From the IMG/VR virus record IMGVR_UViG_2778261005_000027: a stretch of DNA of 11,708 nt, one strand, 5' to 3'. The notes under the pieces are model-generated. The model had not been told where the DNA came from. It did not search any database and saw only the letters and a program-made list of their open reading frames with translations. Source of the DNA: a virus. Lineage: Duplodnaviria > Heunggongvirae > Uroviricota > Caudoviricetes. Position 1 is the stretch's first letter. Every line of letters starts with the position of its first letter. The position numbers and the translations under genes are program-made. Below are positions 214 to 3,143 of this stretch, piece by piece.

Positions 214-960
214 TTACTTCGCAATTCCTGGCTGACCAACATTCGGACGCCAGCTCTCCCAGTTAAAATTCACCCATCGCCCGCCGTTCATGGTCATGCG
301 ATCCATAATCCGCTCACCGAGCAATGTTTTCATGGCCTCATAGTTCAGGTTTGTCAGCATCCCCACGCTGCGCATCGACGCTGTCCGGCGATCAACAATC
401 TGATGCAGCACCACCTGCTCGTTTTTCGTCTCGCGCTGAATGCCAATTTCATCAAGAACCAGCAGATCCACTTCGCACAGCTCCCGCAAAAATTTTTCGC
501 CTGACTGCCCGTCGTCATAGCTGGCGTGCAGGGCGCTCATAACATCAGCCACGGTAACCACAATCACTGTCTGACCGTCTTTCAGCAGGCGATTCCCGAT
601 AGCTGCCGCTAAGTGATTCTTCCCGGTACCAGGTTTTCCGCTGAACGAAAAATTTGTACACCCGGTCATCAGTTCATCGGCGATGGATTTCGCCTGGCTT
701 AACGCGTATCGCTGGCCGTCGTTCTGCACCTGGTAATTCGCAAACGAGCATTTACGGTGCAACGGCTGGATGCCAGAGCGATTCAGAATTTTTTCCACCC
801 GCAACTGACGATTCAGACGGTTGATCTCCTCGCAACGTTTCTGGCCTTCAGTAAGTTGCCACTCACGCCACTCCGCAACCGTTCTGAATGGGGCGGTTAC
901 ATGTGGTGGGGTCAGTCTGCGGATACGCTCCAGAACGCCGCCTGTCGCAATATTTTTCAT
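214..960 (-). CDS. ydaV: DnaC-like replication protein / helicase loader (AAA+ ATPase), 248 aa
   Basis: The ORF has a Walker A motif (GKPGTGKNHLAAAIG) and a Walker B motif (LLVLDEIG), typical of DnaC / IstB-like AAA+ loaders. It lies 6 bp downstream of the ydaU stop, suggesting translational coupling. Confidence 0.9.
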   Translation of the reverse strand: MKNIATGGVLERIRRLTPPHVTAPFRTVAEWREWQLTEGQKRCEEINRLNRQLRVEKILNRSGIQPLHRKCSFANYQVQNDGQRYALSQAKSIADELMTGCTNFSFSGKPGTGKNHLAAAIGNRLLKDGQTVIVVTVADVMSALHASYDDGQSGEKFLRELCEVDLLVLDEIGIQRETKNEQVVLHQIVDRRTASMRSVGMLTNLNYEAMKTLLGERIMDRMTMNGGRWVNFNWESWRPNVGQPGIAK

Positions 961-966
961 GGTCTG

Positions 967-1755
967 TTACCCCCTGAAGCCTGGCGGGATCGCACTGTCC
1001 GGCAACGAGACGGTGTTAACCTGTCGGAGCAACGTCTCAGGCCGAACACCTTTCGGTACGAACAAGCCCTGGTATTCATTGGCGATGCTGTGTCGAATCA
1101 CCTGCTCAGGTGTAAAACCCTGCTGACGGAATTTTTCCAGTTCCCGTATCGCCCCGTTAGCGCCCTGCTCCGTTCGAATCGGTTTTCGCAATGCCTGCCT
1201 GAACTGAACCCACTCATGCCAGAGTGTTTCCGGCAACCAGTCAGGCAGCTCGATAGCCTCCGGCTCGAATTTTTTAGACGCTCGTTTTTGGCGAGGGGGA
1301 TTTAGGGGGAGATCAGTATTTATATCTTCCTCTTCCTCTTCCTCTGGTAACGCTTTTTGATCCGTTTGTGTAACGCTGCCAGCGTTACCTTTTCGTTTCA
1401 GTTCGCGTATTTTTGTAACTCGCTCGTTTGTAACCGCCCGTTTTTTAGAGCTTTTCCCGTTATGACGTTCAAAGTTAGGTAGAGAAAGCCCACCGTCATT
1501 TTCGACCAGCCATCCAACCTGAATTAACGCATCAGCAAAACCAGCCATAAAAGTGATGCGATCTATTGCACTTTTTGTAACGCCGCGAGCGTTACAATCT
1601 GCATTACCGTCTATCATTTGTTGATCCGCCCATGCCCAGAAGCGAATAACCTTCCCTAATGCGGCATCTGGATCAATATTCAGAATCTCAGCAAGCCTGA
1701 ATATTTCCGGCTTATCCGGCGTAATAACCTCGAGCTTTATCCAGTTTGAAGCCAT
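967..1755 (-). CDS. ydaU: Putative phage replication initiator (lambda O-like role), 262 aa, with acidic poly-Glu linker
   Basis: Long ORF directly upstream of the DnaC-like gene, preceded by an AGGTGA Shine-Dalgarno. It contains an EEEEEED linker encoded by a (TCTTCC)3 repeat and embedded palindromic repeats. My recollection of K-12 YdaU is 285 aa, so this allele may differ in length. Confidence 0.8.
   Translation of the reverse strand: MASNWIKLEVITPDKPEIFRLAEILNIDPDAALGKVIRFWAWADQQMIDGNADCNARGVTKSAIDRITFMAGFADALIQVGWLVENDGGLSLPNFERHNGKSSKKRAVTNERVTKIRELKRKGNAGSVTQTDQKALPEEEEEEDINTDLPLNPPRQKRASKKFEPEAIELPDWLPETLWHEWVQFRQALRKPIRTEQGANGAIRELEKFRQQGFTPEQVIRHSIANEYQGLFVPKGVRPETLLRQVNTVSLPDSAIPPGFRG
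1369..1389. repeat. Palindrome copy 1 (TGTAACGC-tgcca-GCGTTACc) inside ydaU, flanked by extra GTAAC half-sites at 1346-1353, 1414-1419 and 1428-1434
   Basis: Read directly from the sequence: 8-bp inverted arms separated by 5 bp, with 7 of 8 arm positions symmetric. Confidence 0.75.
1576..1596. repeat. Palindrome copy 2 (TGTAACGC-cgcga-GCGTTACA) inside ydaU
   Basis: Read directly from the sequence: perfect 8-bp inverted arms with a 5-bp spacer. Confidence 0.8.
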
Positions 1756-1767
1756 TTGTTTTCACCT

Positions 1768-1788
1768 TGTAACGCTCGCAGCGTTACA
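1768..1788. repeat. Palindrome copy 3 (TGTAACGC-tcgca-GCGTTACA), 13-33 bp upstream of the ydaU start codon
   Basis: Read directly from the sequence: perfect 8-bp inverted arms with a 5-bp spacer, lying in the ydaT-ydaU intergenic region next to the ydaU ribosome-binding site. Confidence 0.8.
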
Positions 1789-1832
1789 TTTAACTGATAC
1801 CGAACAAAACAATCCGGCACGATTAATTTCAA

Positions 1833-2255
1833 TCAATGCACTACGACAGAATCGCCGGGCGACCCACCACCGCTGAAATGTGCTTTCCGGTAAACGGCCT
1901 GGACTGCATCATCATGCGCATCAATTGCCGTACTCAACGCTTCCTGCGCCGCCAGTAATGCACGGCGTTCCAGGGTATCGAAGATGCAGAGTCGGTGACG
2001 CAGCTCGCGCGGAAGAATTGCCAGAACCGCAGGGATCAGTTTCTGAATTTTTTCCCTTTGCGCTTTCGTTTCACCTTTTAACCAACGGTGATAGATGTTC
2101 TGCTGATTATTCCAGTCCTTGCCTGGTACCAGGGGCAATTCGCCGCCTCCCTGGCGCAGATATTCTTCAGTAATTGCACTGGCTACCCATGCCTGCCCTT
2201 TTTCAGCTGCCAGGGCTAACAGCACTGATTCGATGTGCTCATGCCTGATTTTCAT
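1833..2255 (-). CDS. ydaT: Rac prophage YdaT-type protein (toxic / CII-like regulator), 140 aa
   Basis: The 140-aa ORF has an AGGAG Shine-Dalgarno 8 nt upstream of the ATG at complement 2253-2255. Length and position after the Cro-like gene match my recollection of K-12 YdaT. It overlaps the ydaS stop by 17 bp. Confidence 0.8.
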   Translation of the reverse strand: MKIRHEHIESVLLALAAEKGQAWVASAITEEYLRQGGGELPLVPGKDWNNQQNIYHRWLKGETKAQREKIQKLIPAVLAILPRELRHRLCIFDTLERRALLAAQEALSTAIDAHDDAVQAVYRKAHFSGGGSPGDSVVVH

Positions 2256-2514
2256 GAATCAACTCCTGTGTATTTTGTGTGTTAGCCTTACATCCAACAG
2301 GTAAACCGTCGGTTGGATTCGGGTAGATATCAGGCCGGAGTTCATGAGGTGTAACCTCGAAATTCGTTACTTCAGCAACACGTAATGCTTTTTCAGGGCT
2401 GAATCTTTCATAGCCCCCCAGCACTCGACTTACATGCACCTGAGATAAACCCGTTAGCTTCCCAAACTGTAGCTGGGTGATATGTTTCTCTTTTAAATAG
2501 TCTCTTAAGTTCAT
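2239..2514 (-). CDS. ydaS: Cro-like helix-turn-helix regulator, 91 aa from ATG (ORF track extends to a TTG at 2520)
   Basis: Helix-turn-helix segment ITQLQFGKLTGLSQVHVSRVLGG. An AGAAGG Shine-Dalgarno lies 6 nt before the ATG at complement 2512-2514. The gene is divergent from racR, the classic cro/cI-like arrangement. Confidence 0.8.
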   Translation of the reverse strand: MNLRDYLKEKHITQLQFGKLTGLSQVHVSRVLGGYERFSPEKALRVAEVTNFEVTPHELRPDIYPNPTDGLPVGCKANTQNTQELIHENQA

Positions 2515-2621
2515 AGCCAACCTTCTACGTTATGCCTCGAGCAAATATTAGCCCTACTAATTTTAAAGATCAATAGTCAGACTATCTTTGATAATATTGG
2601 TAAAACAAATAAACTCTATGT
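2515..2621. promoter_or_regulatory. Divergent racR / ydaS promoter-operator region with an imperfect palindrome ATAGTC-a-GACTAT at 2573-2585
   Basis: AT-rich intergenic region. A candidate ydaS promoter on the minus strand has -35 TTGATC (complement 2568-2573) and -10 TAATAT (complement 2545-2550), 17 bp apart. A candidate racR -10 (GATAAT) lies at 2590-2595. The palindrome sits between the two, as expected for a repressor operator. Confidence 0.5.
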
Positions 2622-3083
2622 ATGAAAAAAACACGCGAAGTGATTGCAACTCCAGAAGCGAGCAAGAATTTAAAAGCCGCATGGAATGCAAGAAAAAAAG
2701 AGCTGAAGCTGACTCAAGAGTTGGCGGCTGAGTTGTTGGGATTCGAATCTCAAGGCACCGTTAGCCAGTATCTGAACGGCAAGATACCGGTAAATACCGA
2801 CGCTGCGCTAAAATTTGCGGCTCTGTTAAAGGTAAAACCAGAGGACATTCGAGAAGACCTTAAAGACTTAATGAATTATGTAAGATCATCAGATACTTAT
2901 GATGATAGCTTTTCAGGCAAAGGATGGAGGCTGGTCAATGAAGAACAGGCAGAGTTACTTAACCTCTTCGAGATTCTACCTGCGTCAGAAAAAGCCAAAC
3001 TCCTTAACCAGCTACGTGGACTAAACAAGCTCTACGAGGAAGCCTTCGAGAACATGCTGGCACTAAAGAAACGTAACCAGTAG
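2622..3083 (+). CDS. racR: Prophage repressor (CI-like) with N-terminal helix-turn-helix, 153 aa
   Basis: Helix-turn-helix segment LTQELAAELLGFESQGTVSQYLNG. The gene is divergent from the Cro-like ydaS and followed by a bidirectional terminator. My recollection of K-12 RacR is 158 aa, so the start or allele may differ. Confidence 0.8.
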   Translation: MKKTREVIATPEASKNLKAAWNARKKELKLTQELAAELLGFESQGTVSQYLNGKIPVNTDAALKFAALLKVKPEDIREDLKDLMNYVRSSDTYDDSFSGKGWRLVNEEQAELLNLFEILPASEKAKLLNQLRGLNKLYEEAFENMLALKKRNQ

Positions 3084-3109
3084 CCACCGCTCACTACCCC
3101 ACCCACAAC

Positions 3110-3143
3110 AAAAAAAAACCGACGTCTTAGTCGGTTTTTTTTG
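3110..3143. terminator. Bidirectional rho-independent terminator after racR
   Basis: A9 tract, then stem CCGAC / GTCGG (3119-3123 and 3130-3134) with loop GTCTTA, then a T8 tract (3135-3142). The A-tract/stem/T-tract symmetry allows termination in both directions. Confidence 0.75.

Follow-up and report, generated by a model that had tools for sequence, protein, structure and literature searches.

In the origin of phage lambda, dyad-symmetric iterons in the linker codons of gene O are bound by O dimers and are followed by a region of high A+T content that unwinds; O itself combines an N-terminal DNA-binding domain with a C-terminal domain that binds P (PMC6022878). An active origin, oriJ, is also reported for the Escherichia coli K-12 prophage Rac (PMC3945230; Potrykus et al. 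2000, as cited in PMC11014345), while ydaU, ydaV and ydaW are still listed as genes of undetermined function (PMC11014345). Here, we analyze a stretch of 11,708 nucleotides, called the window below (IMG/VR virus record IMGVR_UViG_2778261005_000027), which corresponds to a Rac-like prophage of E. coli O157:H7, with 100% identity to strain 2571 and 95% identity to the Sakai prophage Sp10. It carries three copies of a palindrome, GTAACGC-N5-GCGTTAC, in and just upstream of a gene that an earlier note on this DNA took for ydaU. We propose that the palindromes are cognate sites of the protein encoded by the gene that houses them, and that, taken together, they probably constitute the origin from which this Rac-like (Sp10-type) prophage replicates.

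Palindromes inside and upstream of the gene

When both strands of the whole window were searched with TGTAACGC-N5-GCGTTACA, allowing up to 3 mismatches, only three matches were found, named here S0, S1 and S2 (Table 1). A number of 0.04 would be expected, and none of 200 dinucleotide-preserving shuffles reached three. Their starts are 207 and 192 bp apart, which bears out the claim of the earlier note that three copies lie about 200 bp from each other and nowhere else in the window. The half-site GTAACGC occurs eight times as an exact 7-mer, versus 1.19 expected, and seven of the eight copies fall within 1347-1787. The note had further placed the densest cluster at the codons of the poly-Glu linker and the third copy next to the ribosome-binding site; indeed, the cluster around S2 abuts 1325-1345, and S0 directly abuts, on its 5' side, the Shine-Dalgarno sequence AAGGTG (1762-1767, minus strand). 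The word "iteron array" does not fit, since the sites are not tandem but consist of dispersed palindromes and one composite cluster.

The extra GTAAC half-sites listed previously divide into two groups. The one at 1346-1353 stands, as it contains a GTAACGC (1347-1353) that is kept in distant homologues. The other two, at 1414-1419 and 1428-1434, were discarded: each is a plain pentamer within codons for RAVTNERVT, a basic motif conserved in the protein, and other lineages do not retain GTAAC there. A degenerate half-site close to S1 was created by a 12-nt insertion (residues ADCN) that, in the alignment, is present only in the E. coli/Yersinia/Serratia group, where S1 stands at +160 and not +148; we regard it as a functional site with low confidence. 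On the plus strand, S2 (1370-1388) followed by CTTTTCGTTT (1389-1398) obtains a terminator-like score, antisense to the initiator gene and probably incidental.

The sites within the gene are conserved far outside E. coli. A Klebsiella phage protein with 51% identity keeps GTAACGC-N5-GCGTTAC at the same two in-gene positions. A scan of IMG/VR with the bare palindrome returned at least 120 contigs; in about 100 of the 120 contigs listed, the palindrome lies inside a homologue of the N-terminal domain (30-100% amino acid identity), often in two or three copies about 200 bp apart. A second set was collected blind to the palindrome, from contigs representing one genome per species and with the N-terminal peptide pattern MA[SG][DSN]WIK... 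only. Its 76 loci come from Enterobacteria, Pseudomonas, Ralstonia, Planctomycetes, Verrucomicrobia/Akkermansia, Ignavibacteria, Acidobacteria and others. Sites were counted in 74 of them, tolerating 2 mismatches at most. Of these loci, 69 carry one at +148 to +160 (S1), the most widely conserved site of the family, and most carry one at +337 to +412 (S2), with only 5 stray matches in about 350 kb. The upstream copy, S0 (-32 to -44), is restricted to homologues from E. coli/Shigella, Yersinia, Serratia, Pantoea and Erwinia. Most often, the 197 unique homologues have a single S1 and a single S2, a few having two to four sites at S2. The consensus site is GTAACGC(T)NNN(A)GCGTTAC.

Two observations distinguish selection on the DNA from selection on the peptide. 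First, S2 is read in all three frames among the homologues, as GNAxSVT in 52 loci (frame 1), VTxxALP in 15 (frame 0) and SRSERD in 2 (frame 2), always within an uninterrupted reading frame. Second, the codons of S1 are nearly fixed in 72 diverse loci: Gly is GGT in 64 of 64 cases (background, 21%), Asn is AAC in 60 of 60 (68%), Ser is AGC in 58 of 59 (26%) and Val is GTT in 58 of 69 (27%). Shared ancestry inflates the P values of this fixation, the effect itself being unambiguous. Furthermore, the half-sites of S0 and S1 are invariant in 59 distinct close alleles, whose spacers and neighboring wobble positions vary. Free variation of the palindromes at synonymous positions, which the earlier note had listed among the observations that would speak against function, is thus not what the homologues display. 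The use of all three frames at S2, together with the fixed wobble bases, therefore indicates that selection acts on DNA. One and the same segment would be under dual selection, as coding sequence and as the predicted binding site of the protein that it encodes, and the family may offer a clean natural example of such selection, read in three frames.

The encoded protein and its residue 113

The name ydaU holds for only half of the gene. The C-terminal 124 residues (139-262) are 80% identical to K-12 YdaU, and nothing aligns before residue 139 (BLASTP). K-12 YdaU starts with a DUF1376 domain (PF07120, E 3e-26); the window protein has no Pfam match, to PF07120 or any other family, and its N-terminal 140 amino acids match none even at E <= 10, Phage_rep_O included. 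Judging from these comparisons, the gene is a chimera, half a ydaU, with an N-terminal domain unrelated to DUF1376. The match to PHROG 2509, "replication initiation protein," extends over the full length of both protein and profile (E 1.9e-89; residues 1-262 versus profile positions 1-277 of 277); the name is an annotation and not a tested function. A match to PHROG 678, "replication initiation O-like," covers residues 77-236, mostly linker and C-terminal domain, and the C-terminal half also matches PHROG 6451. This C-terminal domain is common to K-12 YdaU and O-like proteins.

Relatives retrieved by the protein database search include proteins of 376 amino acids with the same N-terminal domain and another C terminus; therefore, the two halves are exchangeable modules joined at the acidic linker. 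The breakpoints of exchange are located at the linker, and the N-terminal domain and the sites travel together. Many E. coli and Salmonella prophages encode proteins of 374-380 amino acids that share this N-terminal domain, at 93-100% identity across the first 57% of the query or at 86-87% in a few alignments that run longer, and that continue into another C-terminal region of greater length, which implies that the same origin specificity is coupled to another helicase-recruitment module. In about 640 of 5,426 complete E. coli genomes, at least 80% of a 1.7-kb query that covers the module (window positions 900-2600) is present.

The AlphaFold model of the protein has a mean predicted local distance difference test score (pLDDT) of 66. 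It shows a confident helical domain with a β-hairpin at residues 11-95, in which the peptide encoded by S1 lies in a low-confidence loop between helices (residues 49-60), then a basic helix (residues 107-121), a disordered linker extending to about residue 159 and a helical C-terminal domain. The predicted disorder spans residues 96-159. The top structural matches of the fold are regulators of the CRP, MarR, IclR and GntR types. The N-terminal part (residues 1-121) is modeled as a winged-helix-like domain plus a basic helix, followed by an acidic disordered linker.

No protein element other than this N-terminal domain co-occurs with the sites. Among 75 loci, homologues of YdaV accompany the sites in 10, the C-terminal domain in 5, YdaT in 5, YdaS in 4 and RacR in 1. 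Conversely, the palindrome is missing from K-12 Rac, although ydaS, ydaT, ydaV and the C-terminal domain are all found there.

Variation in the sites points to the same domain and supplies the strongest evidence. In some loci, both copies carry a symmetric variant, GTCACGC...GCGTGAC. IMG/VR was scanned for the three symmetric variants at base 3, with location within the 5' 520 nt of a homologue as the criterion. The C variant was so located in 39 of the 120 contigs listed and the T variant in 32 of 115; the G variant (GTGAC-GTCAC), so located in only 2 of the 120 contigs listed, serves as a control for chance. The class of the site goes with residue 113, in the basic motif KKRAVTNERV and the last position of the pattern KKRAxTxxR-V: across 197 distinct N-terminal domains, it is V in 120 of 138 proteins with GTAAC sites, K (25) or Q (8) in all 33 with GTCAC sites and M in all 11 with GTTAC sites. 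In a neighbor-joining tree of the rest of the domain, the C class appears in about 13 clades and the T class in 4, with the matching residue in every clade, and even proteins with just 15-23% divergence can belong to different site classes and carry different residues at position 113. This covariation argues for direct readout by the protein, because an artifact at the DNA level predicts Val in all classes (GTG and GTA also encode Val). On these grounds, the palindromes are very probably DNA-level binding sites of the encoded N-terminal domain.

Residue 51 (N/H/Y/D) is tied to base 3 by the genetic code, as S1 encodes it, and the protein sequence therefore changes whenever the site class changes. 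In addition, the IMG/VR contig 3300038330_000035 (L443, 1148-1303) contains three GTGACGC-N5-GCGTCAC palindromes at distances of 47 and 90 bp. No homologue of the N-terminal domain lies close to them, and they belong to an unrelated repeated-palindrome element.

Origin-like anatomy and competing explanations

The surroundings of S2 resemble an origin. Lineage after lineage, the coding strand continues after S2 with a half-site, a stereotyped polypurine tract of the (GAGAA)n type and a short A+T-rich run, which together read GCGTTACC(A/T)AGAGAAGAGAAGAGAAG. The GCGTTACC(A/T)AGAG... element is conserved across phyla and becomes GCGTGACC in loci with GTCACGC-type palindromes, the terminal half-site switching class along with the palindromes (locus L271). 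In 62 loci, A+T content at +30 to +60 from the S2 center exceeds the locus mean by 19 points, and purines account for 71% of the coding strand there. Between +330 and +540, the median length of the longest purine run is 18 nt in 70 diverse loci, versus 7 in background windows, and runs of at least 15 nt occur in 60% of the loci, versus 1.7% of background windows. In the window, GC is 0.375-0.40 at 1300-1359. Moreover, loci of Planctomycetes, Akkermansia, Pseudomonas, Ralstonia and others have, downstream of the initiator gene, a gene for either a DnaC/IstB-like ATPase or a helicase of the DnaB family, and the product of ydaV matches PF01695 (4e-19) and the Bac_DnaA ATPase (2e-8). Two GATC (Dam) sites, at 1311-1314 and 1359-1362, flank the polypurine tract, and K-12 Rac also has several GATC at the equivalent place; control by methylation or SeqA through them is possible.

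The pathway that we propose for initiation would begin with the N-terminal winged-helix-like domain and basic helix (residues ~11-121) binding each GTAACGC-N5-GCGTTAC as a dimer, residue 113 reading base pair 3 of each half-site. The C-terminal domain would recruit the DnaC-like loader YdaV and, through YdaV, the host DnaB. Four elements would make up the origin core: S2, the terminal half-site at 1347-1353, the polypurine tract at 1325-1345 and the A+T-rich stretch at 1309-1324. The core sits in the codons of the acidic disordered linker, and unwinding and helicase loading may take place there. S1 and S0, about 200 and 400 bp away, would be auxiliary sites, from which dimers could draw the DNA, by looping or wrapping, into a complex of higher order, and S0 may also dampen read-through transcription into the initiator gene. 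We infer dimer binding, looping, the place of unwinding, origin activity and what S1 and S0 do, be it looping, assembly of a complex or autoregulation; the comparative evidence strongly supports what the earlier note had seen as a parallel to lambda, namely, initiator sites that lie in the initiator's own gene beside acidic-linker codons.

Several points weigh against this proposal. The core holds one palindrome and one or two half-sites, unlike the four tandem iterons of classical origins, and the other sites are 184-350 bp distant from the core palindrome. Over this range of S1-S2 distances, helical phasing is weak (R about 0.3); therefore, any looping must tolerate phase differences. The A+T-rich stretch is short here (~15 bp), with a GC content that is just moderately low, and the purine and A+T bias could be a by-product of the Glu and Lys codons of the linker. 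The basic helix that contains residue 113 is modeled with low confidence (pLDDT, 30-40). The sequences behind the covariation are not phylogenetically independent, and a neighbor-joining tree on ~100 columns is noisy. A literature search for ydaU, oriJ, DUF1376 and the site sequence retrieved no experiment on binding or origin activity for this allele and no description of DUF1376, the palindromes or the N-terminal domain. Its matches to the site sequence are primers, and a Pseudomonas Pf-5 paper that mentions iterons concerns the oriV of an unrelated island.

Among the alternatives, the one that survives best, although we consider it improbable, is that the palindromes are operators for autoregulation only, with which the protein represses or roadblocks its own gene, and that the origin lies elsewhere. 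The position of S0 against the ribosome-binding site, the location of S1 and S2 inside the transcribed gene, a winged-helix fold typical of repressors and a spacing of ~200 bp typical of looping repressors would all suit such a role. However, we looked for a sigma-70-like promoter near S0 and found none; therefore, the initiator gene is probably read from the ydaS promoter, in parallel to lambda O, which is transcribed from pR. Operators alone also do not account for the absence of S0 outside enterics when S1 and S2 are universal, for a conserved half-site/polypurine/A+T element after S2 that has no obvious role in repression or for the combination of an O-like, loader-recruiting domain with a downstream loader or helicase gene. 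Regulation is compatible with origin function as an extra role, and may hold for S0, but not as the sole role; the autoregulation through the third copy that the earlier note envisaged is speculation and would concern enterobacterial members only.

We see only a slim chance that the palindromes work as single-stranded hairpins, be it in mRNA, for control of translation or stability, or in single-stranded DNA, as cruciform, priming or primosome-assembly signals, instead of as duplex sites. Each copy does fold (8-9 bp, -7.6 to -9.4 kcal/mol, z-scores of -3.5 to -4.8), and seven compensated changes occur at position 3/17, but any palindrome would fold, and it is the sequence that is conserved, not the pairing. 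Indeed, positions 2, 4, 5 and 6 are invariant, whereas, among 124 unique sites, 45 have lost the outer pair and 28 the inner pair, and neither pair shows compensated changes (four G-T wobbles at the inner pair). Hairpins also fail to explain a lone half-site (1347-1353) conserved without a partner and a base 3 that covaries with a protein residue. Finally, there is no relevant Rfam match, and on the sense strand no T-run follows the hairpins, the sole terminator-like call (1370-1388) being antisense.

The prospect that another protein is the binder, whether YdaT or YdaS, as the earlier note had suggested, RacR or a host protein, is slimmer still. It can draw on the fact that ydaT and ydaS are immediately upstream in the same operon. 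Against it, the published YdaT box, TTGATT-N6-AATCAA, is a different sequence and lies separately at 2245-2262 (PMC11879457, PMC9986795); YdaT, YdaS and RacR homologues are seldom present in loci with sites; and K-12 Rac has all three regulators and no palindrome. A universal host factor would explain neither the covariation of residue 113 nor the switch of site class between close relatives. The idea that a repeated peptide, xNAxxVT, merely happens to be palindromic in DNA, or that chance produced the copies, can be ruled out: S2 and S1 do share a frame in the window (GNAGSVT and CNARGVT), but S0 is noncoding, homologues use each of the three frames to read S2, the fixation of synonymous positions goes far beyond what codon usage would give, and no shuffle contained three matches.

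The features of the locus are collected in Table 1. Two further repeats lie upstream of the initiator gene. At 2245-2262, an inverted repeat, CTGATT-TTCATG-AATCAA (minus strand, TTGATT-CATGAA-AATCAG), holds the ATG of ydaT (2253-2255) in its spacer; its place is the same as that of the published YdaT box of K-12 Rac and CP-933P, and its sequence is nearly identical (PMC11879457, PMC9986795). Just after racR, at 3108-3132, a strong hairpin flanked by A- and T-runs (AAAAAAAAACCGACGTCTTAGTCGGTTTTTTTT) resembles a bidirectional intrinsic terminator.

Table 1. Sites, proposed origin elements and genes at the initiator locus (window coordinates)
Feature	Position	Strand	Description
S0	1768-1788		TGTAACGC-TCGCA-GCGTTACA, exact; ydaT-initiator intergenic region; starts 32 nt upstream of ATG
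S1	1576-1596		Exact; N-terminal-domain codons; peptide CNARGVT, residues 54-60
S2	1369-1389		1 mismatch (last base C); disordered-linker codons; peptide GNAGSVT, residues 123-129
Degenerate half-site	1601-1607		GCATTAC, 1 mismatch; 12 nt from S1 right half
Terminal half-site	1347-1353		GCGTTAC on coding strand, encodes A-L-P; 23 nt downstream of S2 right half; polypurine tract adjoins
Polypurine tract	1325-1345	-	21 nt, GAGGAAGAGGAAGAGGAAGA, poly-Glu codons; proposed easily unwound or structural element
Short A+T-rich stretch	1309-1324		Just beyond polypurine tract; GATC at 1311-1314
Second GATC	1359-1362		
Codon of Val113	1417-1419	-	Basic motif KKRAVTNERV; predicted specificity residue for half-site base pair 3
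Replication initiator gene	967-1755	-	262 amino acids; ATG at 1755
ydaV	214-960	-	DnaC/IstB-like AAA+ helicase loader; directly downstream of initiator gene
ydaT	1833-2255	-	
ydaS	2239-2520	-	Cro-like helix-turn-helix protein
racR	2622-3083		Divergent from ydaS-ydaT-initiator-ydaV

If the palindromes form an origin as proposed, a module annotated as "hypothetical protein," with homologues in prophages of many phyla, would gain a concrete, testable origin and DNA-binding specificity. The covariation between residue 113 and base 3 lends itself to a direct mutational test and may open a route to orthogonal origin-initiator pairs. The Sp10-type Rac-like prophages of O157 would have an origin specificity unlike that of K-12 Rac/oriJ, and such a difference bears on prophage induction, on cross-replication of coresident prophages and on the reading of "ydaU" annotations. 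More tentatively, and aware that it may well not hold in full, we suggest that the locus could be the type example of a phylum-spanning initiator-origin module with three joint properties: (1) a near-universal 7-N5-7 site at two fixed in-gene places, one of them inside the codons of the DNA-binding domain, so that protein and site constrain each other; (2) a one-residue code, in which V, K/Q or M at position 113 reads A, C or T, that has repeatedly switched origin specificity; and (3) a looped bipartite origin, tripartite in enterics, with a (GAGAA)n polypurine unwinding element instead of the classical A+T-rich 13-mer region. Such a recognition code, if true, would be usable for engineering orthogonal replicons.

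Comparison with known replication systems

K-12 Rac is one of the closest known systems. The initiator gene occupies the same slot, racR-ydaS-ydaT-ydaU-ydaV, and the two prophages share ydaT, ydaV and the C-terminal 124 residues. In the linker of K-12 YdaU, too, there are repeats, after which comes a stretch rich in A+T and GATC. However, K-12 YdaU has a DUF1376 N-terminal domain, and its repeats are of the direct (C/G)AGRTGTTCAAAC type, with no GTAACGC palindromes. The K-12 allele (L001 1980-2290, minus strand) contains five or more of these direct repeats, three or four being clustered in linker codons; together with the stretch that follows, they are probably the oriJ core. Homology between K-12 and the window resumes just past that stretch, at GATC(T/C)CCCCCTAAATCCCCC, and origin and N-terminal domain were therefore swapped as one cassette. 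Since both the N-terminal domain and the repeats differ from those of K-12, the window has another origin specificity, to which the published work on oriJ is not applicable.

Iteron plasmids (RepA/pi/RepE) are another parallel, in which a winged-helix initiator acts on repeated cognate sites beside an A+T-rich unwinding element. Inverted-repeat copies of their sites near the rep promoter serve autorepression by dimers, a possible analogy for S0. However, their iterons are tandem direct repeats of 17-22 bp bound by monomers, whereas the full sites of the window are all palindromes, dispersed and within coding sequence; the direct-repeat families reported for the window are these same palindromes.

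The layout is lambda-like: in lambda and lambdoid phages (such as P22 gene 18, phi80 and Stx phages), the origin lies in the initiator gene, in interdomain-linker codons. Here, S2 and the terminal half-site likewise lie within predicted disordered-linker codons, an arrangement conserved in most of the 74 homologues. As in lambda, the sites have hyphenated dyad symmetry and adjoin an A+T-rich, strand-asymmetric region, for which unwinding is proposed, and the N-terminal domain of the initiator would bind them, as indicated in silico by co-occurrence and by the covariation of residue 113. The gene also belongs to an early rightward operon, after cro- and cII-like genes. Furthermore, lambdoid phages exchange the O N-terminal domain and ori as one module, which the exchange at the linker in the window matches.

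The locus also differs from lambda. Lambda has four tandem iterons of 18-19 bp about 20 bp apart, whereas the core here consists of one palindrome and one half-site, with further full sites 207 and 399 bp away, one in codons of the DNA-binding domain and one outside the gene. The N-terminal domain does not match Phage_rep_O, and the partner is a DnaC/IstB-like ATPase or DnaB, not a lambda-P-type protein. While lambdoid iterons differ between close phages, the site of the window is conserved across phyla. What would be new is a lambda-type origin within an initiator gene in which the initiator domain is uncharacterized, the sites are dispersed and recognition is predicted to depend on a one-residue code.

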